DNA of 64,000 bases, taken from positions 9,686 to 73,685 of the forward strand of contig CALVXU010000015.1 in assembly GCA_944371605.1 (NCBI GenBank), given 5' to 3'. Below are positions 11,490 to 39,177 of the stretch, one piece after another. Below the pieces are notes generated by a model. It saw only the letters and a list, made by a program, of their open reading frames with translations, searched no databases and was not told where the DNA came from. Within the stretch, counting starts at the first letter, position 1, and every line of letters starts with the position of its first letter. The position numbers and the translations under genes are program-made. Origin of the DNA: an uncultured Bacilli bacterium (GTDB lineage: Bacteria; Bacillota_I; Bacilli_A; RFN20; CAG-288).

Positions 11490-13380
11490 AGGTTAAGAAT
11501 TCCTTCTTCTTATTGGCAATCTCTTTCATAGAGAGTTCAAAATCTGAAATATCACTATATTTTTTTAAAAAAGTAACCAATTCTCCTTCTTTAGCACTAT
11601 AACCTAATAATTCCTTTAGGCTATCACTTTCGCCTCTGATTCTTTCTAAAATAGTTTGCTTGAACGCATAGTCAAAAGCCTGTGAACCAGTGAAATTATC
11701 CGAGTGTTTTGCGCAATTCAAATAGATAGCAATATTTTTTATCGTTCGATAGGATATACCAAAATGATAATCTTTTTGTCTTAATAATTCGTCTAATTCA
11801 TCGAAAAAATCTAATTGCTTATCATCGAAGAAGTTCCAATAATTAAACGTGGTGAAGTCCCGGTCTCCAAGGAGAGTTTTTAGTTCTTGATTATTGCTAT
11901 AAGAGATTTTTTTGTTCTCTCCTTGTTCCAAGATATCTTTTTTTGCTTGTGCGAATTTAGCTTTTGATAGATGGATGATAAAAGAACGATCGATCAGTCT
12001 ATCAGAAAGACTAGTTGTTGTCTCATCGACATTAATAGTTCCGATAAAGATGATATTAGTTCCTAATTTGATGACTGGCGGATAACATTTGCCATTTAAA
12101 CATTTGTTTGGTTCAGTCGTGTCTTCTAGAGAATAAAGTCTCAAATACCTTTCATTTGGATCTCTTTCAAGCACTGATAAAAATGGTGCAAACCAATGTT
12201 CGACTTGAGCTAAGTTCATCTCTTCAAATAACACCAAATGCATCAATTCAGGATGATTGTTAGCATGGATAAGAAAGTCAGTAAAACCAGTTTGTGATGG
12301 ATGGTAAATATGGTCATTTGGACTATAATAGCCCAAAAGATCGGTAGGATCAGTATAGCTAGGATAAATCGGTAAAAACAAAAAAGTCTTATCTCGCTCT
12401 GTCAAATTAAAAAAGTGAGCATATTCTAATGGCAATCTTGTTTTCCCGGTTCCAGACATACCAGCTAAAATCGTCAAAGAACCGCTCTTGATGCAAGAAT
12501 GAAAATTATAAATATCACTCTTTGAGTAATGAAGATTAACTTGTTCTAAATGAGTGCTTAAATCATCTAAAATTTGTTCCTCTTTATCCATCATAGCTTT
12601 CTTAGCTAAGAGTTTTTCAGGATTTTCAGCTATAAAAGAACTACTATTCTGTGAGAAGCATTTGATGACCATCTCTTTTGAAAAAAATCTTCGAGTTTTT
12701 TTGCCAACAGAATAGAGGCCACCATTTTTCTCTAATTGATATGTGATAAATTTAGTCTCGATAATTTTATCGTCAGCTAATTTGACTGTTCGGTAATCGA
12801 CTTTTTGAAGCTCAACTTTAAGAAGCTTATTTCCACCATCCAAATAAACCGGCAAGTCAAAGTAATCATTATTCCAATCATCGATGATGATCGGCTGATG
12901 TTGTTTGAGTAGTTTTTCTTTATTAGGACTGATTTGTGGCAGTAAAAAGAAAGAAGTAAAACGCGAATTATCTAATTTTTCTAAAGTGATACGTGTATTT
13001 ATTTTCTTTGAAATAAGTATTTTATCATTAGAATTCATCAATTCATATTTAGGGATAAAAGCTACAAAAGCATCTTTAAGACTATTATAAATATAGTTAG
13101 CTCTTTCCTCCAAATCAGAATATCTGCTTTTGTTAGTTCCCAAACATTTCAAAATAAAATCATCATAGCAATAATAAAAGGATTCACTATCATTAGAAGT
13201 ACGATAACACAAATCATCGTTTTCTTTGATTAATAACGGTTCATCAGATAACGCAGAAAAATAAACGCTGACAGCTGGCACTTTGATATCATTTTTAATT
13301 TCTACTCTCACTAGCTTAGCCAAAATATGATATTGCTGCTTGTTCAATATCTCTATTTGTTCTTGTAAAGTTTCATTCAT
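11473..13380 (-). CDS. McrB-like AAA+ (AAA_5) NTPase with a long N-terminal domain of unknown specificity
   Basis: Walker A LAGMSGTGKTRL. Walker B and the McrB-type signature LVLFEEMNLAQVEHWFAPFLSVLE (compare DEiNRa...f..ll.llE). Downstream FIGTINVDETT and SDRLIDRSF (sensor/arginine region). Confidence 0.7.
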   Translation of the reverse strand: MNETLQEQIEILNKQQYHILAKLVRVEIKNDIKVPAVSVYFSALSDEPLLIKENDDLCYRTSNDSESFYYCYDDFILKCLGTNKSRYSDLEERANYIYNSLKDAFVAFIPKYELMNSNDKILISKKINTRITLEKLDNSRFTSFFLLPQISPNKEKLLKQHQPIIIDDWNNDYFDLPVYLDGGNKLLKVELQKVDYRTVKLADDKIIETKFITYQLEKNGGLYSVGKKTRRFFSKEMVIKCFSQNSSSFIAENPEKLLAKKAMMDKEEQILDDLSTHLEQVNLHYSKSDIYNFHSCIKSGSLTILAGMSGTGKTRLPLEYAHFFNLTERDKTFLFLPIYPSYTDPTDLLGYYSPNDHIYHPSQTGFTDFLIHANNHPELMHLVLFEEMNLAQVEHWFAPFLSVLERDPNERYLRLYSLEDTTEPNKCLNGKCYPPVIKLGTNIIFIGTINVDETTTSLSDRLIDRSFIIHLSKAKFAQAKKDILEQGENKKISYSNNQELKTLLGDRDFTTFNYWNFFDDKQLDFFDELDELLRQKDYHFGISYRTIKNIAIYLNCAKHSDNFTGSQAFDYAFKQTILERIRGESDSLKELLGYSAKEGELVTFLKKYSDISDFELSMKEIANKKKEFLTYGFLR

Positions 13381-15704: not shown

Positions 15705-17528
15705 TCAATTTTTAATTGAGATATAACTGATATTACCATTTGTATGTGTGACTTTATAATAGAACTGAGCTAAATTAGTCCTAGTGAGAAATTCGATATT
15801 TTTAACTGAAGTATCTAAATTTAAGCCACGATTTCTGCTAAAAGAATAGCCGGTATAAAGAATTGTCCCTGTTGTATCCAATAGCAATGAGCACTGGTTG
15901 AAAGCATCCATAAACTTTCTGCTAAAGCGAGCATTTTCAAATTTTTCATTTGTGCTACTCACTTTTGATGTGACTTTGATTTCATCACTACTGGTCTCGA
16001 CTGCAGCTAGTAAATTATCTTTCGAATTATAAGTATCAAAGCGAGTGACACCAACATATCTTGTAGATAAGTCACCTATGATGTCATCAGAAGATTCATT
16101 GACATAATGATAATAACCAATTTTATCCTTATAAACAAAATTTTGTTCTGAATAAGTTTCGATTGAAGCAAAGCCATTACTCAATGGTTTACTTTCTAAA
16201 ATATAATCAGGTCTAGAAAAGAACGATTGTTTTTTACCATTACAATAAAATAAAAGTCCATCACCAGTCACATCATTGATTCCGATCATATTGCCTTCTC
16301 CAGCACAAGAGACCGAATAATAAGTATTCAATGAATTTGGAGATATCTCTTCAGTTTCTCCATCAGTCTCTTCTCCATCTTCAGAAGAAGAATTTAAAAA
16401 TGATTTGATATCTCCTGAACCTGTTATGGTAAAGGTATAAGAATTTTCTTCATCAACAGTTCCATCAGATTTTAATTTGAATCCAATGAATGAACTGCTA
16501 GCTAAAGATTTATGAGCCACGTGCCACCAAGTCGGTTTATGATATGAATAAGAAACATTCGCATCTAAGCTATTAAAAGTGACAGGAACATATTGTCGCA
16601 AATTAGTTTTTCCATCATCATTGAGGACAAACATCTCGCTTCTCACTATTCCTAATTTTGTATCATTACCTGTCGCTAAAACACATAGCGCTTTTTTGGT
16701 CGGAAGAACAAGGTATTGAACATTCTCACAATCTAAAAGTTTTTGTGAGAAACAATCGGTCGAAAGAATTTCATATTCCTTTTTATTGTCGTCGTCATCA
16801 TAAAAGATAGCTACGCCATTTTGATAAACAACACGATTCTGTCTATCAATATTATCCGTGTATGTCATAGATATATAATCATTAGTATATATGAAATCCA
16901 CCAAAGAAGCATCTTCATATGAAGATTTAGTCAATTCGTAATAAATAGGAAAGCCAGAATTACTATTTATGTTTGATTTTGTTTTTAGATAATAATCATC
17001 TTCTGGACCCGGATCATCATGATTGATAATCTGGGCGTTGATGGTATAACTATTAGTTATAGATATGGAAACATCAGAGAGATTTTCAAATGTAACTCCT
17101 AAATCGACACCTGTTGTTGTATAAAGAGCATAGTTATCCCCTAAGTCAATAGCTGCAAATGGCATATCATCATATATGTGAATAGGTTCATCTGAATATG
17201 GAACAGTCGTGAGATAACTTCTGCTTGTAATAGTATCGCCTAACAAGTAAATATCAACCGTATCTCCATGAGCTATATAACAAAAGCGAGAATAATTTAC
17301 ACCATCGTATTTAGGAAATTGTAAATCTTCAAAATATGAGTTGCTGACAATTGTTGGGGCACCTAAATTTGCATTTCCATTAAAGTCGAAGAAAGAGCCA
17401 TAACTATAAGAACTCTCAACTATATCAGTGTAATCTCTATCATGATAAGAATAACCTGGCGAGTCAAACAAACAAGATGTCAATAATAGTACTGATAAAG
17501 CACAAGGAATAATTGCAATTTTTTTCAT
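15705..17528 (-). CDS. Lipoprotein, last gene of the ESCRT-III/Vps4-like operon
   Basis: MKKIAIIPCALSVLLLTSCLF has a signal peptide with lipobox LLTSC. The 607-aa product is Ser/Thr/Tyr/Asp-rich and looks beta-rich and extracytoplasmic. It begins 18 nt after the preceding gene. Confidence 0.7.
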   Translation of the reverse strand: MKKIAIIPCALSVLLLTSCLFDSPGYSYHDRDYTDIVESSYSYGSFFDFNGNANLGAPTIVSNSYFEDLQFPKYDGVNYSRFCYIAHGDTVDIYLLGDTITSRSYLTTVPYSDEPIHIYDDMPFAAIDLGDNYALYTTTGVDLGVTFENLSDVSISITNSYTINAQIINHDDPGPEDDYYLKTKSNINSNSGFPIYYELTKSSYEDASLVDFIYTNDYISMTYTDNIDRQNRVVYQNGVAIFYDDDDNKKEYEILSTDCFSQKLLDCENVQYLVLPTKKALCVLATGNDTKLGIVRSEMFVLNDDGKTNLRQYVPVTFNSLDANVSYSYHKPTWWHVAHKSLASSSFIGFKLKSDGTVDEENSYTFTITGSGDIKSFLNSSSEDGEETDGETEEISPNSLNTYYSVSCAGEGNMIGINDVTGDGLLFYCNGKKQSFFSRPDYILESKPLSNGFASIETYSEQNFVYKDKIGYYHYVNESSDDIIGDLSTRYVGVTRFDTYNSKDNLLAAVETSSDEIKVTSKVSSTNEKFENARFSRKFMDAFNQCSLLLDTTGTILYTGYSFSRNRGLNLDTSVKNIEFLTRTNLAQFYYKVTHTNGNISYISIKN

Positions 17529-17546
17529 CGTTCAATCCCTCCCCCT

Positions 17547-20500
17547 CTATAGTCCTGGATAATAGAAATTATATAGTAGTCCCATATAATCCTCTTTACT
17601 CATCATGAACTCGACTGCTAAAACTATTGGAACAATAATTCCTGCGATAGCAAATACTGAATTGACTGGATTTCTAAATTTGATGATGTGCGGATGATTG
17701 ACTAAATAGACTAATCCCATCAAAATAGTAGCTGCTAAAGGTAAATATTCAATCAATTTATAATCTGTCTGCACCATGAGATCTTCGAATAGATACACAA
17801 ATGGTATAGCTGCAAAAATTATTGTGAATATAATCGGAATAACTTTTGCCTTGATTCCGTTCCCTGAAAAAATCATCCAAGCGATACCTAGTGGTATAAC
17901 AATGAAAAGGTTGATATACGCATTAGCCATGCCGACGTTGACATGATTAAAATTGAGAAGAGTAAAAGCAAAGGAAGCGAGGATAGCAAAAATAGCATAG
18001 ACGATAGAAGAAGCTTTAAAGTAAGTGGCTGAGAGAGAGGACATGCTCTTTTTCTTATACCTGCCTATAACATTATTAGATTTTTGCTCAGTGGCTGTAC
18101 TTATTTTCGTTTTATACTTACTCAAGATATCAAAAAAGACATATTGTAGACTATCAAATTTCTTACCATTATATTTTCCAGAGCTGAGAGAAGCTAAGAA
18201 CTCAAATGACTCTTCTTTTGTGTTCTCGAAGAGAGTGAGATGAATTTTTTGAATCTCTTTCAAAGTTTTAATAATATTCTTTTTCTCATATTTAATACTC
18301 GCGATAGCAATATCTTGCCACACTTTATGAAAGTCTTTATTCAATGCTTGTGAAGAAGTTATTCTATTCGCTTTGATCAAGTCAGCATTCTTCTCATCTT
18401 CCTTTTGGCTCATAGAAATGATGTTATTATATTCATCTTCAGATTTACCAGTAGTATAATCAGCATTTTCTCCTAACAATAATAAGCCGAAATTGGTTTT
18501 GATGTGCAAAGCTGCTTTCAAATTGATCCAATAAGTCTCACTCGTATCTAATTGTAAAGCGATGAGTTTACCTATGAGTTCCTTAGCATTTTCAAACTTG
18601 CCAATCCATAGATTTCTTTCAGCAAAATCAGTGACAATAGTGTAATAATAATCATTAAATACATCATCGTCCATATATTCTTTAGCATTTGGTAAAATAG
18701 CTAAAACGTTGTTGAATAACAAATAAGCATTTTTACTTTTTTCTCTTAAATACTTAGTGCATAATTCAACGATAGTATTGACATAATTACCTTTAGAATT
18801 ATTGATTTTATAGCCACCTTTTAACATCATTTCAATGGTATTATTAACTTCTGATGGTTTATCAAGAATTTTAACTAAATCAGCATTATTAGAGATTTTA
18901 AACTTCACTAAAAGCTTGTTCCATAATGCAGTCGGATCAGCTTGGAATAACTCTAAAGCTTTATTTTGATATTTGATAGACGAATCAAATTTGCTAACTT
19001 TTCTGAATGCTGACGCGACCTGATCATAATAGCCGATGACTTTATTAGCACCACCGATAGTTAAAACATCATAGATAGCATCACTCATCTTATCCACATC
19101 TTCTACCAAATTCGAATATTTATTATTCTTACTATTAGAAGCGGCTATATGAGTCACAATAGCATTTTGTAGACTATAAGTGATATTTAGCTCATCTTTT
19201 TCATCAATATAACTCAATAAAAACTTATAAAGAGGTATCACATGGACAAATTGTTTAGAATCAGCAGAGTATTTAAGCTGTTCTTTTAAAATGTTGAGTT
19301 TTTCTTTGACATATTCCTCTGGTGCAAAAGAGAAGCATTTCCCTAAAACATCATTCAAGGTTTTCTCATTTAAACTAAAGGCAGTAGTAGACAACCCCAT
19401 CGTCGATGAGTTTTCATCTGCGACTCCATTATAAAGCAAATATAAGCACCAATATGCCTCATAATATTTGTTATTTTTTGCTGTTAAATCTCTTAAAGTT
19501 TTTTCAGCTGATTTACGATATTCAGCAGCTCTCTTCAATTTATTTTTGATTGTAAACGTGACCATCGATCGCATTTTTTCTTTAGCAGAGTCTAAAAGAA
19601 CTGCTTCATCAGCTGGGATGACAATCTTTTCTTTTGAGCCACCTAAAATAGTTTTTTCAATCTTTTTTTCGACGACTTGAATCGGTTTAATCTCGACTTT
19701 AATTTCTTTCTTTTTAACTTTAAACCCGACATTTCTTTGAATAGCCGACTTTAAGATTGCTTGCAAATTGTTATAAAATTGAGGATTGTATTGAAGAGCT
19801 TGCAATTTCTTTAGTTTTGCAGGGAATTGACTGATGTCAACCTTATTAGTGATGACTGGAACAAGAGCTAAGGCTGGATCTTCTTCTCTTCTTTTCAAAT
19901 ATCTCGACCACTCATTTTGAACCCATGGCTGAGTGATATAATCAACCTCATCAGTACAGATTAAAAGAAATACAGGAGCTGTCGATAAAGCATGATAAAT
20001 AATCGGTTCATATTCAGCACCGACTTTTTGCTTTAACGTCTCTTCCGAATAAAATACACGATATCCAGCCGCAGTCAAATTTTCATAAATATCTTTAGCT
20101 ACTTTGTCATCGGCAGTATAACCCTTGCCATCTAATGTGCGCACTTTTAATGATATAAAAATGTCATAAGGATCTTCTGAAGATAGCTTTTCATAAGCCA
20201 ATGAACGAATGTCTTCAAGTTCTTCAGCGCTCGCACGATAATTATCTGCTTGCTTACCTTTAGCATAGTTCAATGCTTGAATCAAGTTAGAATCTTCTAA
20301 ACAATTTCTGTCTGAGAGTCTATTTAAAGTTGGCTTATGGGTGGCATTACCATCTTCATCGACATATAAAATGCCATAATCACAAAGGAATTTTTGAAAA
20401 TATAATTCAGCTAAAATGTTTGTGTTATTCTTTTCATCATTTTTATATTTTACAATCAAATCATCAATATATTCTTCGCATTCTTCAAATTGCAATCTAT

Positions 20501-20663
20501 TTCTTTTTTCATACACACGTTGGATTTTTTCAGTCACATCGGCGTCAAAAGATATGACCGGAAATTCTCTATGACAATAGCTGCATTCAACAACACCATT
20601 GCTGACATCAGTGGACTGTATAGGCGCACCACAATAACTACAGGTCAAGTCTAACACTTCCAT
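17547..20663 (-). CDS. Zinc-ribbon / TIR-like domain / helical-repeat / 5-TM membrane protein
   Basis: N-terminal CSYCGAPIQ...CSYCHREF (CxxC...CxxC). The TIR-like block is YDIFISLKVRTLDGKGYTADDKVAKDIYENLTAAGYRVFYSEETL...VFLLICTDEVDYITQPWVQNEWSRYL (compare TIR_2: vFiSy...a..l...L...G..vf.d....G......i..al..a.v.l.l.s....S.Wv..E). About 550 aa of helical sequence follows. The C-terminal approximately 190 aa holds five hydrophobic helices. I set the start at the ATG at 20663, 8 nt after GGGGAGG; the track TTG is at 20669. Confidence 0.65.
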   Translation of the reverse strand: MEVLDLTCSYCGAPIQSTDVSNGVVECSYCHREFPVISFDADVTEKIQRVYEKRNRLQFEECEEYIDDLIVKYKNDEKNNTNILAELYFQKFLCDYGILYVDEDGNATHKPTLNRLSDRNCLEDSNLIQALNYAKGKQADNYRASAEELEDIRSLAYEKLSSEDPYDIFISLKVRTLDGKGYTADDKVAKDIYENLTAAGYRVFYSEETLKQKVGAEYEPIIYHALSTAPVFLLICTDEVDYITQPWVQNEWSRYLKRREEDPALALVPVITNKVDISQFPAKLKKLQALQYNPQFYNNLQAILKSAIQRNVGFKVKKKEIKVEIKPIQVVEKKIEKTILGGSKEKIVIPADEAVLLDSAKEKMRSMVTFTIKNKLKRAAEYRKSAEKTLRDLTAKNNKYYEAYWCLYLLYNGVADENSSTMGLSTTAFSLNEKTLNDVLGKCFSFAPEEYVKEKLNILKEQLKYSADSKQFVHVIPLYKFLLSYIDEKDELNITYSLQNAIVTHIAASNSKNNKYSNLVEDVDKMSDAIYDVLTIGGANKVIGYYDQVASAFRKVSKFDSSIKYQNKALELFQADPTALWNKLLVKFKISNNADLVKILDKPSEVNNTIEMMLKGGYKINNSKGNYVNTIVELCTKYLREKSKNAYLLFNNVLAILPNAKEYMDDDVFNDYYYTIVTDFAERNLWIGKFENAKELIGKLIALQLDTSETYWINLKAALHIKTNFGLLLLGENADYTTGKSEDEYNNIISMSQKEDEKNADLIKANRITSSQALNKDFHKVWQDIAIASIKYEKKNIIKTLKEIQKIHLTLFENTKEESFEFLASLSSGKYNGKKFDSLQYVFFDILSKYKTKISTATEQKSNNVIGRYKKKSMSSLSATYFKASSIVYAIFAILASFAFTLLNFNHVNVGMANAYINLFIVIPLGIAWMIFSGNGIKAKVIPIIFTIIFAAIPFVYLFEDLMVQTDYKLIEYLPLAATILMGLVYLVNHPHIIKFRNPVNSVFAIAGIIVPIVLAVEFMMSKEDYMGLLYNFYYPGL

Positions 20664-20665
20664 TT

Positions 20666-22105
20666 TCAATTCCTCCCCTTCAGTTTAAATTCAGGCATCT
20701 TTACTTTTTTAAACTCACTATCTAATAGGCATAGTTGATTTTTAATATCTTGTCTCATCCTAATAGCTCTCGAGAGACAATATTTATCGAACAAATCCAA
20801 GTCCACATCTGATACTTTGCGATAATGCGGGAATAAGATTTTCAAATACGCTGTCGCTATTCTCTTCACCGCACTGATATCACGAGTGTCACCATCAACT
20901 TCTTCTAAAAGTTCGTCGACCAAATGATCATAAACAGAATCGTTTCTAAAAAGATGTAGCATCTCAGTAAAATACTCACTGTTTAAAGATAAACCAGTCA
21001 CTTTCATCGACTCGCTCATCCGAGGAATGTCCCAACCACGAATGAAGCCATGAATACGATCTAATAAAGCCGAATCTCTAAAAATCATCGGCAGTTCAGA
21101 AAACATATCGACATTAGTATCCATATCAGCTTCTTTGATATTTCCTAAAAAAACCATTCCAGCATCAGCGATAGTCTTTTTAGTGCCAACAGCAAATTCA
21201 CCATTTTCTAGATATCCTTTCAATGCTCCTTGCATCTCATTCATATCTGGAAAACGAATGGTTTTTATCTCATCTAAAGCGACAACATCATAATTACCGA
21301 TGAGTCCGACCATATGATAGCGCATATCATAAAACAGCTTGGCTCTAGTCATCACACCACCAGAATTGAGCCATACATATTTAGATAAGCGAGAAAAAAC
21401 ATATGATTTTCCAGTCCCCTTCGGTGCCAGTTCAATCAGATTAAGACGCTTTTGAGCGAAAGGTAAAAGTCGAGAAATCATTGTCAGTCGTTCTTCTTCA
21501 TCAGCAAAAGAAGAAGCATTATAATCCATCGCACCCAAAACTAATTCAATCCATTCTTCGATAGAAAATTCTTTTCTGATATTACAAAAGTAATTCGCAT
21601 CTAATCTGTATGGCTTAAAGGCAGTAAACTTCTTAAGATTTATCTTTCTTAAAGTTTTTTTGCCTTGCACGTATTCCATTTTATTCAGAGTGACAACTCC
21701 CCAAAATTCACTATCTAAAGAAACTTTTTCTTCCTTGATTTTTTCCCATGCAAAATCAGATACAACAGTCGAATCAAAATCGACATCTAAATCCGGCATA
21801 GCAAAGGAAACATATCCTTCAGTGAGATTGATATTGATTTTTAATTTTGCTAAAAAAGTTATAGTACCAGAATTCAAAATAATCTCATCTAATAACAGCG
21901 GCCACGAAGTTTTATCCGGAATCAATTCCTTGACTTTTTCAGCTATCAAATTGATGTCATAAGTTCCGTCTTGATTAGCGTATTTTTTAACGATGTAATC
22001 ACGGATAAAAGCAGGAAGCGATAAAGAAGCGAAGAGTGAAGAAGCTTCTTTTTTATATAAAGACATCGGTTCAAAAAACTGTTGTAATTTTTCTTGAGTA
22101 CTCAT
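20666..22105 (-). CDS. BrxL-N-terminal / TIGR02688-like P-loop ATPase (no Lon-protease domain)
   Basis: Walker A LIELAPKGTGKSYVFS and Walker B YDVVALDEIK. The N-terminal region (LPAFIRDYIVKKY...KVKELIPDK...FLAKLKININLTEGYVSFAMPDL...FWGVVTL) is collinear with my recollection of the BrxL N-terminus (VPVYVLEYLLGMY...VK.IL..NYVRPDE...VIDKVTVKLNEK.D.YEA.L.NLG...GGIWC). At 479 aa it matches the TIGR02688 size class rather than full BrxL. Confidence 0.6.
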   Translation of the reverse strand: MSTQEKLQQFFEPMSLYKKEASSLFASLSLPAFIRDYIVKKYANQDGTYDINLIAEKVKELIPDKTSWPLLLDEIILNSGTITFLAKLKININLTEGYVSFAMPDLDVDFDSTVVSDFAWEKIKEEKVSLDSEFWGVVTLNKMEYVQGKKTLRKINLKKFTAFKPYRLDANYFCNIRKEFSIEEWIELVLGAMDYNASSFADEEERLTMISRLLPFAQKRLNLIELAPKGTGKSYVFSRLSKYVWLNSGGVMTRAKLFYDMRYHMVGLIGNYDVVALDEIKTIRFPDMNEMQGALKGYLENGEFAVGTKKTIADAGMVFLGNIKEADMDTNVDMFSELPMIFRDSALLDRIHGFIRGWDIPRMSESMKVTGLSLNSEYFTEMLHLFRNDSVYDHLVDELLEEVDGDTRDISAVKRIATAYLKILFPHYRKVSDVDLDLFDKYCLSRAIRMRQDIKNQLCLLDSEFKKVKMPEFKLKGRN

Positions 22106-22106
22106 A

Positions 22107-23576
22107 TTAAATTCCTAAATCATTTTCTTCGATCGGAGAAGAAATCTTAATCATGAATGAACATACTACATTTTTATCGAAAACATCCACTTGATATTCA
22201 CCTGCTTTTTCAATCTTAAAAAGATTGCTCTTATAATTTTTGATATCTTTAGTAGTAGCTACTTTTTGCCCATTCACAGAAATATAAATTGAATCATGTT
22301 GACCGCTTAGATAAAACTCAACCTGATAAAGATTTGTAGGACTATAGTCAAGTTCTCTATTCTTAACTATCAGTTCTTCATCAAGCGGAATATCTTGCTT
22401 AACACGGTTGTTTAGTGATTGTGTAGAAACATCATGAAGAGTCTTTTGAGAGCTATCGACTCCAGCATATTTTTCATATTCTTTAATATCTTTGATGTCG
22501 ATGTGTTTCCTAATTTCATCTGCCTCTCTGATAAAGTCTGCCATAGTGATATTGACAATCGTGTCACCTTTAAACGAAGCTACTAATGCGCGTTCTTTGG
22601 CTTTATCACATAAAAGGAACATATCAGCTCCAGAAAAATTATCAGTTATAGCCGCTAATTGATTAATGTCAACATCAGAATCCAAAGGTAATTTACTTAC
22701 ATTCTTAATAAGCATTCTTTTTCTTTCTTCATAATTTGGTAGTCTGATATAAATCTTTGTAGAAAAGCGGCCACTTCTTAATGCAGCACTATCAATACTC
22801 CAAGGTTTATTAGTAGAACCTAATAACAACAGATTAGGATTCTTTCCTGTGAAGCCATCAATCTGCTGTAAAAATTCATTTACACGGCGATCGTTATGTA
22901 TATCTAGACCGCGTGAGGCGAATAGAGTATCCATCTCATCGATGAAAATGATGCTTCTTTCATCTTTGCCTACAGCCTCAAATAATGAAGCGATATTTTT
23001 TTCAGATTCTCCAACCCACTTAGAAACAATATCAGATGAACGGACTAGATAAAACTTAGCTTTCACTTCATGGGCAACTGCTTTCGCTAACATCGTTTTA
23101 CCAGTGCCAGGCGGGCCATATAACAAAACTCCGCCACCGCTTTGTTTCTGATAAATCTTATATTTTTCTGGATACATCAAAGGATAGATCATGGCGATCT
23201 TTATCTCTTCTTTCGCCTCATCTAAACCGATGATATCATCGAATGAAACGTCTGGTGCTTCAGTGCATTGCCATATTTTTTTATCATCATCGCTATTAGC
23301 TTTATTTTTAATACCATTTGCTTTGTTTGTAGGAGCACGAGATGTATTCATGTTTTCTAATGTTAAATCATCAGCATATTTGACAAGTCTATTGGCTTTT
23401 TCTATCCGGGCTTTTTTTAATTCAGTTGTGGAAGATTTGCTCGCTAAAAGCAACTGCTGAGCAGCTAAATAATAATTGCGCTTAGCAAGATCAAGATTAC
23501 CATTAGCTTCATATTGTTTGGCTAAACGAAGATAATGGTCATATTTGTCCATTAAAAAGCTAACATTATTACCCAT
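22107..23576 (-). CDS. MIT-domain AAA+ ATPase of the Vps4/katanin/spastin (meiotic) clade, with an extra C-terminal beta-rich domain
   Basis: The N-terminus YLRLAKQYEANGNLDLAKRNYYLAAQQLLLASK...KARIEKANRLVKYADDL is MIT-like. The AAA core is VLLYGPPGTGKTMLAKAVAHE, SSDIVSKWVGESEK (compare Vps4 SSDLVSKWMGESEK), IIFIDEMD, GSTNKPWSIDSAALRSGRFSTKIYIRLP (compare Vps4 [25 protein letters not shown]). Confidence 0.8.
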   Translation of the reverse strand: MGNNVSFLMDKYDHYLRLAKQYEANGNLDLAKRNYYLAAQQLLLASKSSTTELKKARIEKANRLVKYADDLTLENMNTSRAPTNKANGIKNKANSDDDKKIWQCTEAPDVSFDDIIGLDEAKEEIKIAMIYPLMYPEKYKIYQKQSGGGVLLYGPPGTGKTMLAKAVAHEVKAKFYLVRSSDIVSKWVGESEKNIASLFEAVGKDERSIIFIDEMDTLFASRGLDIHNDRRVNEFLQQIDGFTGKNPNLLLLGSTNKPWSIDSAALRSGRFSTKIYIRLPNYEERKRMLIKNVSKLPLDSDVDINQLAAITDNFSGADMFLLCDKAKERALVASFKGDTIVNITMADFIREADEIRKHIDIKDIKEYEKYAGVDSSQKTLHDVSTQSLNNRVKQDIPLDEELIVKNRELDYSPTNLYQVEFYLSGQHDSIYISVNGQKVATTKDIKNYKSNLFKIEKAGEYQVDVFDKNVVCSFMIKISSPIEENDLGI

Positions 23577-24156
23577 TGAGTTTTTCCTGTAGTTTCTTAT
23601 CTAAATCAGCAAGAGATGCCTCGACATCATCCTTTTTGCCGTCTTGATTAATTTCTTCATTTATTAAAGACATGATTTCATCATTAGAAATATTACTGGC
23701 TTCAGAGACATTAGAGAATGAATCTTTAGAATCATCTAAAAACAGTTCCATTCTCTCTTGTTGTTTTTCAGTAGAAGCCATCGCTAAGCTGAATTGCTTA
23801 GAGACTTGTGCGAATTGCTTGTCATCTGTGAGTTTGACCATATCCTTAGAAAGAGAAGACATTCCATTCAAAAATTCAGACGTGGTTTGCAACATATCTT
23901 TCAAAGAGACCATGATTTCAAAATTGATTTTCATCTCACGAATCTTTTTCTCTTGTGCTAATGCACTTTTTAAAGCAGAAATCGCTAAAGATAGCTCATT
24001 ATCTAAGCCATGCAGCTTAGCTTCTTTAGCTTTTTCAATATAAATCTGTTTTTGCTCTTCTAACTTCTTCAATTGTTTCGTCATTTGAGCGATAGTTTTC
24101 TTCAAGGTTAACTTTTTTTCAAATTCTTTTTCTTCCTTACTTTTAAATATTGACAT
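23569..24156 (-). CDS. ESCRT-III (CHMP/Snf7)-like coiled-coil protein with C-terminal MIM-like helix
   Basis: 195 aa with a basic N-terminal half, an acidic C-terminal half and a long helical hairpin pattern. It is collinear with CHMP2-type proteins; for example, FAQVSKQFSLAMASTEKQQERMELFLDD aligns with LPQIQKIMMEFERQAEIMDMKEEMMNDAIDD. The C-terminus ASLADLDKKLQEKLNG resembles the MIM1 motif (CHMP2A ADLEERLKNLRR). Confidence 0.6.
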   Translation of the reverse strand: MSIFKSKEEKEFEKKLTLKKTIAQMTKQLKKLEEQKQIYIEKAKEAKLHGLDNELSLAISALKSALAQEKKIREMKINFEIMVSLKDMLQTTSEFLNGMSSLSKDMVKLTDDKQFAQVSKQFSLAMASTEKQQERMELFLDDSKDSFSNVSEASNISNDEIMSLINEEINQDGKKDDVEASLADLDKKLQEKLNG

Positions 24157-24727
24157 CTTGAGACTCCTCTTTCATATCTGATGAACTATTAGGTAAATCA
24201 TCACTTTCTTCAAACATCGCTAAAAGTTGATCATCGCTTTCATTGACCCCGTATATCTTATCATCTGGAGTATAAGACGCATTGACTTCATTAAAGACAT
24301 CATCAGCACTAGTCATAATCTCTTCACTCTTCACTTTAGTCTGCAATGCGCCATTCAAAAATTTAGCAAGGTTCTTTTGATCTGATAATAAATCCTGCAA
24401 AGATACATCTGAAGCAGCTTTAATAAAATCTTTATCGTCTAAAGCATCTTTAAGCTTTTTCAAAAGTTGTAAATTATAGAGCAAGTATAATGAACGTTGG
24501 ACTAAAGTTTGACGATCTTTTTTTAACGCTTCTATCTTCTTTGCATATAGAAGTCTAATATCACGATTCTTCTCTACTTTGCCTTTTTCTAATAGAGCTT
24601 GTTCTTCACGTGATTTTTGAATTATCTGCTCTTCAAGTGCTTGTTCACGATTATCTAATTCGATGATAGCATCAACAACTTCTTCACGTTTAAGCTTTTT
24701 AAATTTATTCTTCTTAAACGGCCACAT
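24143..24727 (-). CDS. ESCRT-III (Snf7)-like coiled-coil protein
   Basis: 194 aa with a basic N-terminus (MWPFKKNKFKKLKREE). It follows a Snf7-like pattern: ai.eL...e.LE....k.eee...L...G.....r....aKk.e.Lkk....l......l.n.q. The C-terminal tail is acidic (DDQLLAMFEESDDLPNSSSDMKEESQD). Its start overlaps the upstream stop in TGATG. Confidence 0.55.
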   Translation of the reverse strand: MWPFKKNKFKKLKREEVVDAIIELDNREQALEEQIIQKSREEQALLEKGKVEKNRDIRLLYAKKIEALKKDRQTLVQRSLYLLYNLQLLKKLKDALDDKDFIKAASDVSLQDLLSDQKNLAKFLNGALQTKVKSEEIMTSADDVFNEVNASYTPDDKIYGVNESDDQLLAMFEESDDLPNSSSDMKEESQDVNI

Positions 24728-25095
24728 CAGAATTTTTCCTCTTTAGTATCAATAGTAGTGACCAAGTTCTTTCTTTTCGTGATTGCTAATTTTAAATCAT
24801 TGATGCAGGAGATCAGCTTTTCACTAGCAAAATCAGTTTTTTTCAAGCACTTATTAACTTCAATCATCAAATCACCAATAGTGTTTTGGATATTTCTATC
24901 TGCCTTTTCACTATCAGCACGTGGGATGAGATATTTGATTTCCTCTCTCAAAGTTTTTAATTCCTTAGAAAGGTTGTCGTCTTTTCCTTCGACTAAATCA
25001 ACTAAAATATTCATCGAAGAAAGCATCTCAGAGATGCGATTCTTTGACTTAACCTCATCTTTATATGCAGAATTTTTATTTTTAAAAAAGAACAT
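24727..25095 (-). CDS. Small helical protein of unknown family (operon gene 2)
   Basis: An ORF of about 122 aa, predicted helical by composition. I moved the start to the ATG at 25095, 8 nt after GGAGG; the track start at 25110 contains the SD itself. Confidence 0.5.
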   Translation of the reverse strand: MFFFKNKNSAYKDEVKSKNRISEMLSSMNILVDLVEGKDDNLSKELKTLREEIKYLIPRADSEKADRNIQNTIGDLMIEVNKCLKKTDFASEKLISCINDLKLAITKRKNLVTTIDTKEEKF

Positions 25096-25119
25096 TTCCT
25101 TTTCCTCCAATCAATTCAA

Positions 25120-26235
25120 TCATCGAAGTTTTTGTCCACAATTAGGACAGAAGAGAGCATTTTCTGGAACACGAGCATGACAAGAAGGACACACACCATC
25201 TTCGATCAACTTAGTACCATCATTAGGACAGAACTTCATATTCCCACCAAATTTATTATGACAAGTGGGACAGACCATAGTGATAGAATGGGAACCAGAA
25301 ACAGGTTTAGCATTAGGAACTGATTTATTTCCATCTGTAGGCCATCCTAAAATTTTTAAAACATCATAATACTTATCAATATCTGAACTTTGTAAATCAT
25401 GTAAAATTTTCTCTCTTTCAAAGTTCTTATCATCTAATCTTTCTAATTCGGCGGCTATTTCCTTTGCATCTTTTTTCTCTTGCTCTTTATCTTTTAATTC
25501 TTTACGTCGTTTTTCGAGAGCTTGAATTTCAACCTCACTCGGAGAGATATTGCCGATAGTGAATGAGCAAACTTCTAAGCCATAATCATCACTGAACATC
25601 TGATTGATCTGTGTCTTAATATTTTCTGCGATATCTAATTTATATAAAGTTATTTCTTCAAAAGGAATATGTTTTTCCTTGAGCGTTTTATAAATATTAG
25701 GTTCAATGATAGATAAAAGTCTTTGCAATAAACGGATTTGTAAATCAGAGATTGTAAAATTCTTATCTGCTCCAACTAATTCTTGATAGAATTTTTGAGA
25801 ATTCTTTACACGTACTTCAAATTCACCAAATGCTCTCACATGAACCAAAATATCAGTAGCTTCATCGCGGAATGCGAAAGGCGTGCTAGTTCCCCATTTC
25901 ACAAGCAATCTAGCTGTTTTAGAAATAAAAACTAAATCAACTGAACAAGCACCTACTTTTCTAGCACTGAAAATTCCTTTTTTATAGTCAAATATCGGAT
26001 ATCTTCCGCCTTGTAAAACGTTCATCAGCATCCCGTCTTTCACAAACACCACTTCATGCGTTTGTGGAACAATAATTTCAGCTTCTGGATTTAAAACATC
26101 TGCTTGAAATCTCCAGAAAAGTGAATTGTTATCACCTTCAAATTTGATTTCTTTTAGATTTTTTAAATCCTTCTTATTCTTCTCATTGATCGAATCATCA
26201 TTGTTATTCAAATTAAACACACTTCTTTTTGCCAT
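25120..26235 (-). CDS. SPFH/Band-7-like protein with C-terminal double zinc ribbon (YdjI / COG4260-like)
   Basis: SLFWRFQADVLNPEAEIIVPQTHEVVFVKDGMLMNVLQGGRYPIF and LVFISKTARLLVKWGT fit the YdjI/virion-core-like SPFH family. The C-terminus CPTCHNKFGGNMKFCPNDG...CPSCHARVPENALFCPNCG holds two zinc ribbons. I moved the start to the ATG at 26235, 6 nt after GGGGGT. Confidence 0.7.
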   Translation of the reverse strand: MAKRSVFNLNNNDDSINEKNKKDLKNLKEIKFEGDNNSLFWRFQADVLNPEAEIIVPQTHEVVFVKDGMLMNVLQGGRYPIFDYKKGIFSARKVGACSVDLVFISKTARLLVKWGTSTPFAFRDEATDILVHVRAFGEFEVRVKNSQKFYQELVGADKNFTISDLQIRLLQRLLSIIEPNIYKTLKEKHIPFEEITLYKLDIAENIKTQINQMFSDDYGLEVCSFTIGNISPSEVEIQALEKRRKELKDKEQEKKDAKEIAAELERLDDKNFEREKILHDLQSSDIDKYYDVLKILGWPTDGNKSVPNAKPVSGSHSITMVCPTCHNKFGGNMKFCPNDGTKLIEDGVCPSCHARVPENALFCPNCGQKLR

Positions 26236-26520
26236 AGTGTACCCCCATACACACATATTTTATTTATTATATTAGAAAAAAAGTATACACACAATTAAAA
26301 ATATGTAACTTTAGTAGAATCCTAGTATAAAAATTCTCATTTTCAAATTTTACTAACTAAATGTTCCTAATGCTAAAATTAAATACTAAAAAACATAACC
26401 CATGTTGAATAAAATCTGAAAATTTGCATATATGATTGTGTGCCTACATATTACGTTTCGACATAGTAATCACTGTAATTATTTTTATCATGTAAAGTTT
26501 TAGAAGCTTACTGCTTAATT

Positions 26521-28218
26521 TTACAAAAGTTTGAGTACTGACAAAAAATCATCTAACTTAATAAAATTGACATCATGTTTGATTTTTTCTTTTAAGAAAC
26601 GACTTTCATCTTCATCTTTACAAATTAAAATATCAACATCTTTAGTTTCCAAAGCCAAAATATACCCTTGAGATTCAATTCTCTTACAAAGATCAATACA
26701 ATCTAAATCAGATTTTTGAACATCATTAGAAAAGGCGAATCTTTTACCTATAAATTTTGGATCGGATAATATTGTCTTATATTTTTCATCGCTCTTTCTT
26801 TCTCTTCTCAACTTGTCAAAAGGCTTTTCGATTACTCCTTTAAGCCTCGAAATATATTCCCTTAGTTTTCTTTCATCTGCGTTTAATTTTGTGACTTCAA
26901 TATCCCACTTGCTAGTAATTATGCATTCTAGACCAGCTTGCCTAATTAAATCCCCTAGCAACAACTTAGAATTAAAATGCTTCTCAATTAAATACTTTAA
27001 AGCAAGCATCGTAGCCATGGCATCATAAGAGGCTTCATGAAAATTGATATTTTTTGTTTCATCCTCAGGAAGATATTTTTTAACTATTGCTTCAAGTCCT
27101 CCACTCTCTTTTAATAACTGTTTAAAGAGAATATGAACATCTATAGCAAAAATATCCAATGGATTATTTCCATATCTCCTATAAGAATAATCAAGATAAT
27201 CAAAATCGTTTTTGACATCAAATCCAAAAATCAATATATCTTTTTGATTAAAAAGATAGTTAATATAATCGATATAATAATCAAACTCAGGGGCTTTTCT
27301 ATATATTTCGTAGTTATCTTTTTCGTACCTTAAATGAAGGTCTTTTTGATTTTTTCTACCAATGAGAGCAAAATTATAATTTCTCCCATTGCCAGGATTG
27401 ATTATGTATTCACCTCTCATTGGTCTCTGAAAATTTGATGTGACTATAGTCCAACCAAACTCACATATTTTACCTTCGTCGTTAAAACAGTTAGCACATT
27501 CCGTATCAAAAAAGATATATCGTTTTACATTATTCCAATTAGTATTATTAAAAATGTTCTCCTTTACTTGTTTTGACTTGAGCTTTACATATTCTTTTTT
27601 AAAGCTATTAGACGAAGTTGTATAGCACCATGATGAAAAGATATCCTTTGATAAGCATTCACTTAACGTAAATCTGTATTCATTACATATTTTTTCAAAA
27701 ACTTTAAAAGCTAATAAAGCATTAGTCTTTGAATAATGTTCTTTAATCTTAATAACATCATCATTTTTCGGAAAAAGATTATTTATTGCGTTACTTAAAG
27801 ATGGTATGACAAGTTTCTTCTTAGTAATTCTATAGAAAGTTTGTACATCAAAAGCTTTTATATTAATGTCGATTAACTCATATCTTTTACAATCAGATGA
27901 TATGTAAAATAAATCATTCTTAATATCCCAACCCATTACTTGGTTTTCAGGGTTAGTGAGCAACGACTTAATTTTTTCATAATAGTAGGGGAATTTATTT
28001 TGTTTCCTATAAAACTCATAATCATTTTCAAAGTGAGCAAGTTCAATTTTTCTTTCAACAACATCAGAAAAATCTTCATTTTCACCAGGATTGATGAAAA
28101 AATTGCCTTCTTCAATAATCTGAAAAGAATCATTAACAAGTACATAGCCAAATTGAGCAATTTTAGGTTGAATGTTATGTTTATTAGCCACTTCACAATC
28201 TATAAATAATAAATTCAT
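26521..28218 (-). CDS. Tandem DEDDh (DnaQ-like) 3'-5' exonuclease domains plus a C-terminal BRCT-like region
   Basis: Domain 1 has LLFIDCEVAN (ExoI), MGWDIKNDLFYI (ExoII) and EHYSKTNALLAF, where ExoIII has N in place of the usual D. Domain 2 has IFFDTECANC, FGFDVKNDFDYL and FHEASYDAMATMLAL, an intact H-x4-D. The tail is FIGKRFAFSNDVQKSDLDCIDLCKRIESQGYILALETKDVDILIC. Confidence 0.65.
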   Translation of the reverse strand: MNLLFIDCEVANKHNIQPKIAQFGYVLVNDSFQIIEEGNFFINPGENEDFSDVVERKIELAHFENDYEFYRKQNKFPYYYEKIKSLLTNPENQVMGWDIKNDLFYISSDCKRYELIDINIKAFDVQTFYRITKKKLVIPSLSNAINNLFPKNDDVIKIKEHYSKTNALLAFKVFEKICNEYRFTLSECLSKDIFSSWCYTTSSNSFKKEYVKLKSKQVKENIFNNTNWNNVKRYIFFDTECANCFNDEGKICEFGWTIVTSNFQRPMRGEYIINPGNGRNYNFALIGRKNQKDLHLRYEKDNYEIYRKAPEFDYYIDYINYLFNQKDILIFGFDVKNDFDYLDYSYRRYGNNPLDIFAIDVHILFKQLLKESGGLEAIVKKYLPEDETKNINFHEASYDAMATMLALKYLIEKHFNSKLLLGDLIRQAGLECIITSKWDIEVTKLNADERKLREYISRLKGVIEKPFDKLRRERKSDEKYKTILSDPKFIGKRFAFSNDVQKSDLDCIDLCKRIESQGYILALETKDVDILICKDEDESRFLKEKIKHDVNFIKLDDFLSVLKLL

Positions 28219-28221
28219 TAT

Positions 28222-28986
28222 TTAATTTCTATTTTCCTTATAATCTTTGTTCTTTTTTATAACAGCTTCTAGTAATTTAGGAGTTACACATTTTTCTTTT
28301 GCTTGCTTTACAATTGACGAAATATCTTTTGGAAGACAGCTTCCTCCATATCCTCTATTATTCTTATAGACAAAAGTATGACTTGAACCAATTCTAGGAT
28401 CTGCAATCCAAATTTCTCTAGCTTTGTTATATGAAACTCCTAGTTTTTGACAAATATCATACATCTCATTGCAAAAAATCACTTTAGTTGCTAAATATGC
28501 ATTTTCCATGTACTTAGCCATTTCGACAGTATCACTATCTCCTTGATATATTTTTACATTTGAATTAATAACACTTTGGTAAACTTCAATAGCCATATCA
28601 ATTGCATCTTGTTCGCCACCAAAAGATAGCCAAGAACGATCAGATAAATTGGCAAAAGGATGCGCAACAGTTTCACCATAATATTCAGGTTGAAAAACTA
28701 TCTTCTTATGGTATTTATTGACCATCTCTTTTGTAAAACCAACTTTAACAGTTGAACGTAAAATAAGCACTGGACATGAGCACATAGAAATTACTTCTTC
28801 AACTGCTGAAGTATCACAACTCCCATCCTCATTCATAGGCGTAGGAACACAAATAAAAGCAGCATCGCATTTATTAATTTCTTCCATACTTCCTATGTTT
28901 TTGAATTTATCATATAACACTGCTTCTTTAAAAAGATTACTCATTGCAGTTCCAACATGTCCCACTCCAACAATTCCAACTTTCAT
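28222..28986 (-). CDS. UDP-glucose/GDP-mannose dehydrogenase-family protein lacking the C-terminal UDP-binding domain
   Basis: MKVGIVGVGHVGTAM (Rossmann GxGxxG), FICVPTP and the catalytic Cys box GYGGSCLPKD. At only about 254 aa it is short. The start ATG at 28986 overlaps the TAA of the upstream giant gene in TAATG; the track start at 29001 contains the GGAGG. Confidence 0.7.
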   Translation of the reverse strand: MKVGIVGVGHVGTAMSNLFKEAVLYDKFKNIGSMEEINKCDAAFICVPTPMNEDGSCDTSAVEEVISMCSCPVLILRSTVKVGFTKEMVNKYHKKIVFQPEYYGETVAHPFANLSDRSWLSFGGEQDAIDMAIEVYQSVINSNVKIYQGDSDTVEMAKYMENAYLATKVIFCNEMYDICQKLGVSYNKAREIWIADPRIGSSHTFVYKNNRGYGGSCLPKDISSIVKQAKEKCVTPKLLEAVIKKNKDYKENRN

Positions 28987-35129: not shown

Positions 35130-35200
35130 AGCAGCCAACGGGAATCGAACCCGCATATACAGCTTGGGAAGCTATCGTTCTACCACTGAACTATGGCTGC
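35130..35200 (-). tRNA. tRNA-Gly (CCC anticodon)
   Basis: The reverse complement GCAGCCATAGTTCAGTGGTAGAACGATAGCTTCCCAAGCTGTATATGCGGGTTCGATTCCCGTTGGCTGCT folds as a cloverleaf. Acceptor is GCAGCCA/TGGCTGC, D stem GTTC/GAAC, anticodon stem ATAGC/GCTGT, loop TTCCCAA, T stem GCGGG/CCCGT with loop TTCGATT. The discriminator U is typical of bacterial Gly. No CCA is encoded. Confidence 0.8.
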
Positions 35201-39162: not shown

Positions 39163-39177
39163 TCTATCCTGACCTCC

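Follow-up and report, generated by a model that had tools for sequence, protein, structure and literature searches.

An ESCRT-III/Vps4-like gene cassette linked to a membrane-embedded TIR protein in gut Bacillota

[quoted passage not shown] Recent ESCRT papers and reviews hold that systems combining Vps4 with ESCRT-III are absent from bacteria, and a Vps4-like ATPase appears to be absent from them (PMC7619361). The question is raised by an eight-gene operon on the minus strand of a 64,000-nucleotide stretch of DNA from an uncultured Bacilli bacterium of the CAG-288 lineage (assembly GCA_944371605.1, contig CALVXU010000015.1, positions 9,686 to 73,685; the whole of this stretch is called the window here, and all coordinates below are positions in it). 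A preliminary description of the window, made from the DNA letters, had read the operon as an ESCRT-III/Vps4-type module coupled to immune-type components. Domain scans, structure models and conservation across related loci uphold that reading, with refinements: what the locus encodes is a bacterial ESCRT-III/Vps4-like module genetically wired to a membrane-embedded zinc-ribbon-TIR protein, accompanied in this particular sub-type by a BrxL-type ATPase. The composition of the locus is well supported; its function we infer.

The eight open reading frames (ORFs), g1 to g8 in the order in which they would be transcribed, occupy positions 15705-26256, and the ORF table places them, and the junctions between them, where the preliminary description had put them. 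A gap of 9 nucleotides separates g1 from g2 (25111-25119); g2 and g3 share a single nucleotide, at 24727, in a TGATG overlap; g3 overlaps g4 by 14 nucleotides (24143-24156), and g4 overlaps g5 by 8 (23569-23576); g5 and g6 are a single nucleotide apart (22106), and g7 and g8 are 18 apart (17529-17546). The 2-nucleotide gap between g6 and g7 (20664-20665) presupposes that translation of g7 begins with the ATG at 20663; use of an upstream TTG start would make of it a 4-nucleotide overlap. The gene order is not a product of chance, because the full order g1-g7 recurs in three of the related loci to be considered below (L006, L009 and L011) and, with a protease gene inserted, in a fourth (L003).

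The argument for an ESCRT-III-like polymer is best begun with g4 (23569-24156, minus strand). The protein itself has no Pfam match. Among 46 of its relatives, 23 match Snf7 (best E=4.6e-5); these matches are sub-threshold, and no other family recurs among the relatives nearly so often. Longer fused proteins with a g4-type N-terminal domain likewise reach 24.5 bits for Snf7, under the cut-off of 27.3. A profile of the g4 family searched against the PDB retrieves CHMP2A as its top match (E=0.037), collinear over residues 17-149. The AlphaFold2 model (predicted local distance difference test, pLDDT, 72.4) consists of five helices (residues 7-48, 52-107, 112-146, 158-171 and 175-194) in the order that is characteristic of ESCRT-III: a long alpha1-alpha2/3 hairpin, alpha4, alpha5 and a C-terminal tail helix. 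Foldseek, given this model, returns CdvB, CHMP2A (probability 0.97) and CHMP1B first, at E about 0.3. By three lines, then (the Pfam matches of its relatives, the PDB profile and the predicted fold), g4 is identified as a putative divergent Snf7/ESCRT-III protein.

The conserved ends of g4 and of its neighbor g3 fit an ESCRT-III reading. The first of these proteins starts MxxFKSK and the second has a conserved MWPFK start; hydrophobic-basic N-termini of this kind resemble those of Snf7 and CHMP proteins. At its other extremity, g4 carries a terminal amphipathic helix of the IEKELEELKKKM type, ending no more than 8 residues from the C-terminus (23581-23628, minus strand; DVEASLADLDKKLQEK in the window). 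The pattern E[LIM]xx[LIMV][KR]x[KRQ][LIM] is found near the C-terminus in 71 of 84 g4 relatives, and a looser form of it in 81. The tail is like the consensus of MIM1 (MIT-interacting motif 1): its spacing is MIM1-like, but the Arg is missing. This tail may bind the MIT domain of g5. The corresponding end of g3 has a conserved motif of its own, IYG...DDxLLAMFE.

For g3 (24143-24727, minus strand) the evidence is of a different kind. No Snf7 or PspA match is found with Pfam among 44 relatives, and a profile search against the PDB returns nothing relevant. The AlphaFold2 model (pLDDT 66.7) displays a long hairpin (residues 14-51/55-96), and CdvB2 filaments occupy all of the first eight places in its Foldseek list (probability as high as 0.96, E 0.15, TM-score 0.44): it is on the basis of this predicted fold that g3 is designated ESCRT-III-like. 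Of the two Snf7/CHMP-like proteins of the preliminary description, g4 accordingly stands on the sequences of its relatives and on its fold, and g3 on its fold, with no support from sequence. Neither has been drawn into an unrelated family: it is Snf7, CHMP2A and ESCRT-III structures that the searches retrieve. The g3 family numbers 621 clusters at 90% identity, all of them without names. A PspA-type reading of the two proteins was also tried and is rejected: PspA_IM30 is matched by none of g2, g3 and g4 and, for g3 and g4 relatives, is missing from the 25 listed families.

The g4-type domain also occurs in other proteins. Among the best 150 matches of a representative search of protein clusters, and outside the window, the Snf7-like domain appears as an N-terminal fusion: in some proteins it precedes a RuvB-like AAA+ module and, after that, a nuclease of the NERD or TnsA-like kind, and in others its partner is an FtsK/SpoIIIE ATPase (such fusions are found among P0191, P0194, P0202, P0209, P0213, P0222, P0244, P0258 and P0304). 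These have the look of conflict-type proteins and may belong to a wider family of Snf7-anchored enzymes.

Is g5 (22107-23576, minus strand) a Vps4? Its architecture is that of an MIT-like domain, a single classical AAA+ module and a C-terminal DUF7862 domain. Pfam matches AAA at 1.5e-38, together with AAA_lid_3; the Walker A motif (GPPGTGKT) is intact, as is the Walker B motif (IIFIDEMD), and both of the ATPase motifs that the preliminary description had quoted, SSDIVSKWVGESEK and TNKPWSIDSAALRSGRF, are located in this protein. CdvC is the NCBIfam family that scores best, whether the query is the entire protein (residues 13-370) or the AAA region by itself; the scores of the latter (CdvC 201 bits, CDC48 192, PAN 190) are far under the equivalog cut-offs (650 for CdvC). 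Against the PDB, the best single-domain match is an archaeal Vps4, whose 178 bits are all but equal to the 179.5 of p97 D2. Over the segment that extends from Walker A to the pore loop, yeast Vps4 scores 72.6 bits versus 62 for the best Cdc48 domain. On these scores the safe placement of g5 is at the boundary between Vps4 and Cdc48 D2.

The N-terminal domain of g5 (three helices, approximately residues 10-75, at 23352-23549) gives a further indication. For residues 1-100, MIT is the sole Pfam match (E=0.0059; 17.1 bits, under the cut-off of 30), and a profile of 27 g5-type N-termini searched against the PDB finds chitin synthase 1 chain 2mpk, which we take to be an MIT domain, as its best match (E=0.0015), followed by the MIT domain of Vps4B (E=0.33). 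The statistics are weak but specific, and point to an MIT-like domain. It is conserved together with the g4 tail: of 78 cassette ATPases, 76 have it, among them some with a different AAA module, such as a double-AAA type of about 700 residues, and the tail is retained in 71 to 81 of 84 g4 relatives. (That double-AAA sub-type, seen in L023:10575-12668 and about 25 similar loci, has an MIT-like N-terminal domain, two AAA modules and AAA_lid_6; it brings to mind the proposal that Vps4 descended from Cdc48.) At the opposite end, Vps4_C reaches E=0.17 in Pfam, over residues 342-370, and what comes after it instead is DUF7862, a beta domain (22146-22325; 28.1 bits versus a cut-off of 27). An operational definition of Vps4 calls for an N-terminal MIT domain or for ESCRT genes nearby (PMC10936438); g5 has an MIT-like domain and also has g4, which overlaps it by 8 nucleotides. 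The MIT+AAA composition of the preliminary description thus holds, with CdvC/Vps4 as the best score; its assignment of the ATPase to the meiotic clade has to be softened, g5 not being an unambiguous member. The protein also matches the PADLOC model of IetA (5.4e-37) over the shared AAA core, and scores 107 bits versus a cut-off of 510 with NCBIfam IteA. Membership in IetAS is rejected because the match is restricted to that core. No protease gene is recognized in the operon or its scanned neighbors; a trypsin-like protease is encoded in some related loci.

Two genes precede the presumptive polymer subunits. The first, g1 (25120-26256, minus strand), is an SPFH protein of the YdjI type with a C-terminal double zinc ribbon, just as had been proposed, with all three Pfam matches above their curated cut-offs (Band_7_1 87.7 bits versus 24; DZR 32.1 versus 27.3; Zn_Ribbon_1 35.9 versus 25). 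A scan for hydrophobic segments detects no transmembrane helix in it. The second, g2 (24727-25110, minus strand), is a small helical protein without a family match in Pfam, PADLOC or NCBIfam; a profile search against the PDB and hhalign against g4 yield nothing informative. The N-termini of its relatives are of two sorts, M[CG]xFFKK and a true transmembrane helix, and g2 is on this account probably membrane-anchored. (Many of the relatives start MC.. or MG.. and continue FF[KR]KK, while others have the full transmembrane helix, which suggests that the family anchors the same small protein in the membrane by alternative ways.)

Downstream of g5 the operon changes character. The protein most pertinent to function is g7 (17547-20669, minus strand), which has two N-terminal CxxC pairs (a zinc ribbon), a TIR_2 domain at residues 186-295 (42.5 bits versus a cut-off of 28), a helical TPR/ARM-like region and five C-terminal transmembrane segments at residues 889-1023; the domain order given in the preliminary description is fully recovered. 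The putative catalytic residue is E253, in the motif WVQNEW (codon at 19911-19913): in alignments it coincides with the Glu of two other TIR domains, those of flax L6 and of bacterial 7uxr, and 41 of the 47 g7-type proteins that BLAST detects retain it; g7 itself is a putative effector. The gene between g5 and g7, g6 (20666-22105, minus strand), had been called BrxL/TIGR02688-type, and is that: it scores 388.3 bits with TIGR02688 (cut-off 329.3), 2.4e-105 with Pfam BrxL_ATPase and 2.7e-174 with the PADLOC BrxL model PDLC02505. It is a short form, BrxL_N plus BrxL_ATPase, and the Lon protease domain is absent in Pfam, PADLOC and NCBIfam scans. Membership in a BREX (bacteriophage exclusion) system is rejected, as there are no BREX partner genes among the scanned proteins: PADLOC finds no BREX model (PglX, PglZ, BrxA-C) matched by the ten neighboring ORFs or by any operon protein other than g6. 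The last gene, g8 (15705-17528, minus strand; 607 residues), has no match in Pfam, PADLOC or NCBIfam. Its hydrophobic, signal-like N-terminal segment followed by LLTSC fits the earlier suggestion of a lipoprotein, and it looks like a lineage-specific last gene outside the conserved system.

What belongs to that conserved system can be read from its recurrence. A one-genome-per-species scan yielded 80 loci, all in metagenome-assembled genomes (MAGs) of Bacillota of gut origin (Christensenellales, other Clostridia, and Bacilli/Anaeroplasmataceae), and five more from metagenome contigs bring the set to 85. By tblastn, g3 is present in 84 of the 85, the ATPase in 81 and g1 in 73; the g2 family (cluster 5 in a clustering of called ORFs) is represented at 74 loci. 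A g7-type protein, defined by a zinc ribbon, a TIR or TIR-like domain, a helical region and a variable C-terminus, is found at 59 of 86 loci; of the 49 with enough flanking DNA, 40 have one, and 22 of these 40 have the motif W-x-x-N-E-W and 18 have instead a paralogue of about 1260 residues that lacks the Glu. BrxL is found in 11 of the 85 loci, alongside the long form of g5 with the DUF7862 tail in 10 of the 11, and a g8 homologue in one locus (L007), which makes accessories of g6 and g8. Among the other partners that recur, an ABC exporter pair is found in 39 loci and a trypsin-like protease in 27; MacB/FtsX and TIR-TPR-LRR proteins recur as well. The eight-gene module of the preliminary description therefore shrinks: the combination does recur in other genomes, and the presence counts show the conserved unit to be one of five to six genes, namely g1-g2-g3-g4-ATPase, usually with a g7-type protein. 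(In L031, L036, L058 and other loci an additional ORF of 117-120 residues, 119 in one instance, lies between the g2-like gene and g3. It clusters with the g7-type family, is found in the sub-type with the Glu-less protein of about 1260 residues, and has the appearance of a piece detached from that protein, or of a paralogue of one part of it.)

The surroundings of the cassette are, by comparison, fickle. It lies in unrelated neighborhoods across the related genomes, and none of the genes that flank it in the window is found near it in any related locus. In the window, a two-gene unit on the minus strand (9966-13380), downstream of the operon, fits the McrBC-like neighbor noted in the preliminary description: in it an AAA_5 protein of 635 residues (11473-13380) matches the PADLOC defence candidate PDC-M26A (1.6e-38) and its 507-residue partner has no family match.

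How does the cassette compare with systems that are already known? The nearest kin are the archaeal and eukaryotic ESCRT-III systems with Vps4/CdvC (CdvB/CdvC; CHMP2A-CHMP3-VPS4), with which it shares ESCRT-III-like subunit genes directly upstream of an MIT-AAA ATPase gene, a MIM1-like helix at the C-terminus of g4 and, in g5, a Vps4-like pore loop, SKWxGESEK. An SPFH + coiled-coil + zinc-ribbon protein is even included in one archaeal ESCRT type, Meth_adaptin (PMC10936438), and g1 is likewise an SPFH protein with zinc ribbons. The differences are equally plain: the hosts are bacteria (MAGs of gut Clostridia and Bacilli), the similarity is under curated thresholds, no ESCRT-I/ESCRT-II winged-helix proteins or CdvA are among the Pfam matches obtained, the cassette is coupled to TIR-transmembrane, BrxL and trypsin-like protease genes, and some relatives have an MIT + double-AAA ATPase. 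Among bacterial systems, Bacillus subtilis ydjFGHI (also from a Firmicute) resembles it in co-encoding ESCRT-III-superfamily proteins and an SPFH protein of the Band_7_1 type that has zinc ribbons at its C-terminus; a YdjI-type SPFH protein is required for the link between PspA and the membrane in B. subtilis (PMC8581546, as cited in PMC10936438). In contrast with ydjFGHI, the helical subunits of the cassette match Snf7 and not PspA_IM30, the cassette has its own AAA ATPase and TIR and BrxL partners, and the domains attributed to YdjG and YdjH in what PMC11237479 says of them (TPM, NTF2-like) are unmatched in the Pfam scans.

Partial precedents are found in the supplement to PMC11237479, to the extent of its descriptions. 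It lists bacterial operons of the form "MIT+Vps4-AAA -> TPR+TM" (TM, transmembrane) from several Gram-negative phyla, which are said to lack Snf7, and associations of PspA or a divergent TM-Snf7 protein with an inactive-AAA+AAA protein and ABC transporters. The likeness consists in a bacterial MIT-AAA ATPase adjoining a large TPR + multi-TM protein and, in some variants, in double-AAA ATPases and ABC transporter neighbors; TIR, SPFH and BrxL do not figure in those descriptions, the comparison being by description only. Comparison with anti-phage systems is likewise two-sided. A membrane-anchored TIR domain with a conserved catalytic Glu is shared with TIR systems (Thoeris ThsB; Pycsar-type TIR-TM effectors); unlike these, g7 has no PADLOC TIR model and no ThsA, SAVED or cyclase partner, and its partner is ESCRT-like. 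With the BrxL of BREX, g6 shares a score above the TIGR02688 cut-off and the BrxL_N + BrxL_ATPase composition; it differs in having no Lon-protease domain, no BREX neighbors among the ten ORFs scanned, and a place in only 11 of 85 cassettes. A cassette composed of SPFH, double ESCRT-III, MIT-AAA and TIR proteins was not found described in the literature, coverage of which is incomplete and novelty not proven; the preliminary remark that no described system of this composition was known stands to that extent, and is qualified by the partial precedents just cited.

What is the cassette for? The reading that we favor, at about even chances, is that an ESCRT-like membrane module controls a TIR effector in a defence or envelope-damage response. 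In such a scheme, g1 and g2 would bring g3 and g4 to the membrane's inner face, on which these two would co-polymerize. The MIT domain of g5 would bind the MIM-like tail of g4, and the ATPase would extract subunits and turn the polymer over in the manner of Vps4. Assembly of the polymer at a perturbed membrane would cluster or release the TIR-TM protein g7, the trigger being phage entry or lysis, or else damage to the envelope. A putative NAD-cleaving activity of the TIR domain would then arrest the cell or serve as a signal, and the g5 ATPase would hold the system off, or reset it. The link to the membrane is seen in the five transmembrane helices of g7 and in the transmembrane helix or hydrophobic-basic N-terminus of g2 relatives; the conflict-type context is seen in the BrxL, trypsin-like protease and TIR-TPR-LRR partners of the related loci. 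Four things favor a role in defence or damage response: retention of the TIR Glu by the majority of g7-type proteins, partners of conflict type, variation among sub-types and a defence candidate nearby.

A number of observations weigh against this reading. Every ESCRT-III and MIT sequence signal is under its curated threshold; the AlphaFold2 models are moderate (pLDDT 67-72), with Foldseek E values of 0.15-0.3; and the AAA module of g5 scores almost equally against Cdc48-D2 and CdvC/Vps4. Support from sequence is lacking for g3, and since its comparison with g4 by hhalign is not significant (E=0.089, probability 0.6%), paralogy of the two is not claimed from sequence. Among the 49 well-covered loci, 18 have the Glu-less g7 paralogue and 9 have no g7-type protein, so NAD cleavage is not a universal output of the cassette. 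No PADLOC model matches g1-g4 or g7. Searches of IMG/VR (viral contigs), PLSDB (plasmids) and INPHARED (phages) find no relatives of g3, and there is consequently no sign of carriage by mobile elements. It is because an active TIR is not universal, a link to mobile elements is missing and no defence model matches the core that confidence in a controlled TIR effector is held at about even.

Several of these points are put to use by the main rival, in which the cassette serves envelope stress or membrane repair only, as a Psp-like system with ATP-driven recycling and no part in immunity, and the g7-type protein is a sensor or scaffold. The g1-g5 core is indeed far more conserved than an active TIR, ABC exporters (39 loci) and MacB/FtsX are frequent neighbors, the SPFH-PspA partnership of B. 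subtilis, by what is cited of PMC8581546, protects the membrane, and absence of the cassette from phages, plasmids and viral contigs is what a repair function would lead one to expect. Why, then, should the catalytic Glu of the TIR domain be retained in so large a majority of the BLAST-detected g7-type proteins? Partners such as BrxL, a trypsin-like protease and LRR/TPR proteins typify conflict systems, the accessory genes are highly variable and the genomic neighborhoods unrelated, and a defence candidate adjoins the operon. A function confined to stress or repair is, on balance, unlikely, and is nevertheless the strongest competitor of a controlled TIR effector.

A more radical objection is that the helical proteins are coiled coils of a generic kind, with no relation to ESCRT-III beyond a superficial resemblance, and that g5 is a generic Cdc48/IetA-like unfoldase serving a protease- or TIR-based defence. 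The sub-threshold Snf7 and MIT matches, the proneness of helical proteins to spurious fold matches, the match of g5 to IetA, the near equality of Cdc48 and CdvC scores, and the trypsin-like proteases of 27 loci can all be enlisted in its favor. It has to contend with the recurrence of Snf7, ahead of any other Pfam family, in half of the g4 relatives examined, with a CHMP2A alignment that is collinear across the whole core, with MIT as the top match of the g5 N-terminal domain in two independent libraries, with ESCRT-III structures as top Foldseek matches of two proteins as unlike in appearance as g3 and g4, and with the confinement of the IetA match to the shared AAA core; we regard it as improbable. 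Housekeeping membrane remodelling analogous to archaeal Cdv/ESCRT (vesicle budding, cytokinesis or spore engulfment) is about as improbable, for although an ESCRT-III-like pair with a Vps4-like ATPase is what archaea have, the Meth_adaptin type also includes an SPFH + coiled-coil + zinc-ribbon protein (PMC10936438) and the protein family is large (624 clusters at 50% identity), gene content varies among relatives in four or more sub-types, flanking synteny is not conserved, the cassette is linked to TIR, BrxL and protease genes, and no division or sporulation genes are adjacent. These last two explanations are less likely than either a controlled TIR effector or a pure repair function.

Some details of the locus remain to be recorded. 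The likely true start of g1 is the ATG at 26235, as it is preceded by a Shine-Dalgarno-like GGGGG run and some cluster members have 371 residues; that of g2 is likely the ATG at 25095, because the resulting 122-residue product is the one called in identical contigs. The 264-nucleotide gap that precedes g1 (26257-26520) is the probable promoter region of the operon. It includes three sigma-70-like hexamer pairs on the minus strand (26282-26376); the total of promoter-like sites in the scanned region is below the shuffled mean, not above chance, and is not used as evidence. Inside the operon, on the minus strand, there are a few weak terminator-like matches, all in coding sequence; the terminator-like count is within two standard deviations of the shuffled mean and is likewise not used. 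An Rfam scan of the window finds tRNAs only, with no leader RNA and no family at 26257-26520.

Directly upstream, on the minus strand, lies an ORF (26521-28218) for a 565-residue protein with a double DEDDh-like exonuclease (PADLOC DEDDh, 1.3e-11; a weak Pfam DEDDh_C match), and further upstream, also on the minus strand, a 1807-residue multidomain ORF (28986-34409) with a C-terminal LOG/Rossmann-like sequence, TGGLGGVMEA...GGGAGTLSE. A block of about 34 kb, between 1266-1424 and 35130-35200, is mostly of lower G+C content (26-37%, versus 36-43% beyond 36 kb); it is bounded by two tRNA-Met genes and one tRNA-Gly gene, and adjoins ORFs of 1307 and 1261 residues at 35239-42963 that are taken, from their size and position, to be rpoC and rpoB. 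The block may be a genomic island.

A bolder formulation would make of the cassette the first bacterial Vps4-plus-ESCRT-III system, widespread in gut Clostridia and Bacilli, with a polymer that gates a TIR immune effector, and possibly of archaeal origin. We hold this to be doubtful as a whole, and set it out for what would follow from it. If both components do sit together in a conserved bacterial cassette, the view that bacteria lack a Vps4-like ATPase would have to be revised, and such a cassette would offer a compact, clonable system for studies of ESCRT-III turnover; the family spans hundreds of sequence clusters in gut Clostridia. If the cassette was acquired, its source may have been archaea whose ESCRT includes an SPFH and zinc-ribbon protein. 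The recurrent linkage to a TIR-TM protein suggests an unrecognized coupling of the state of the membrane to an immune-type effector, which, if the formulation is true, would be a prokaryotic counterpart of the way in which eukaryotes link ESCRT-dependent repair of membranes to programmed cell death. The linkage also makes it possible to test directly whether the tie of ESCRT to cell death is older than the eukaryotes.

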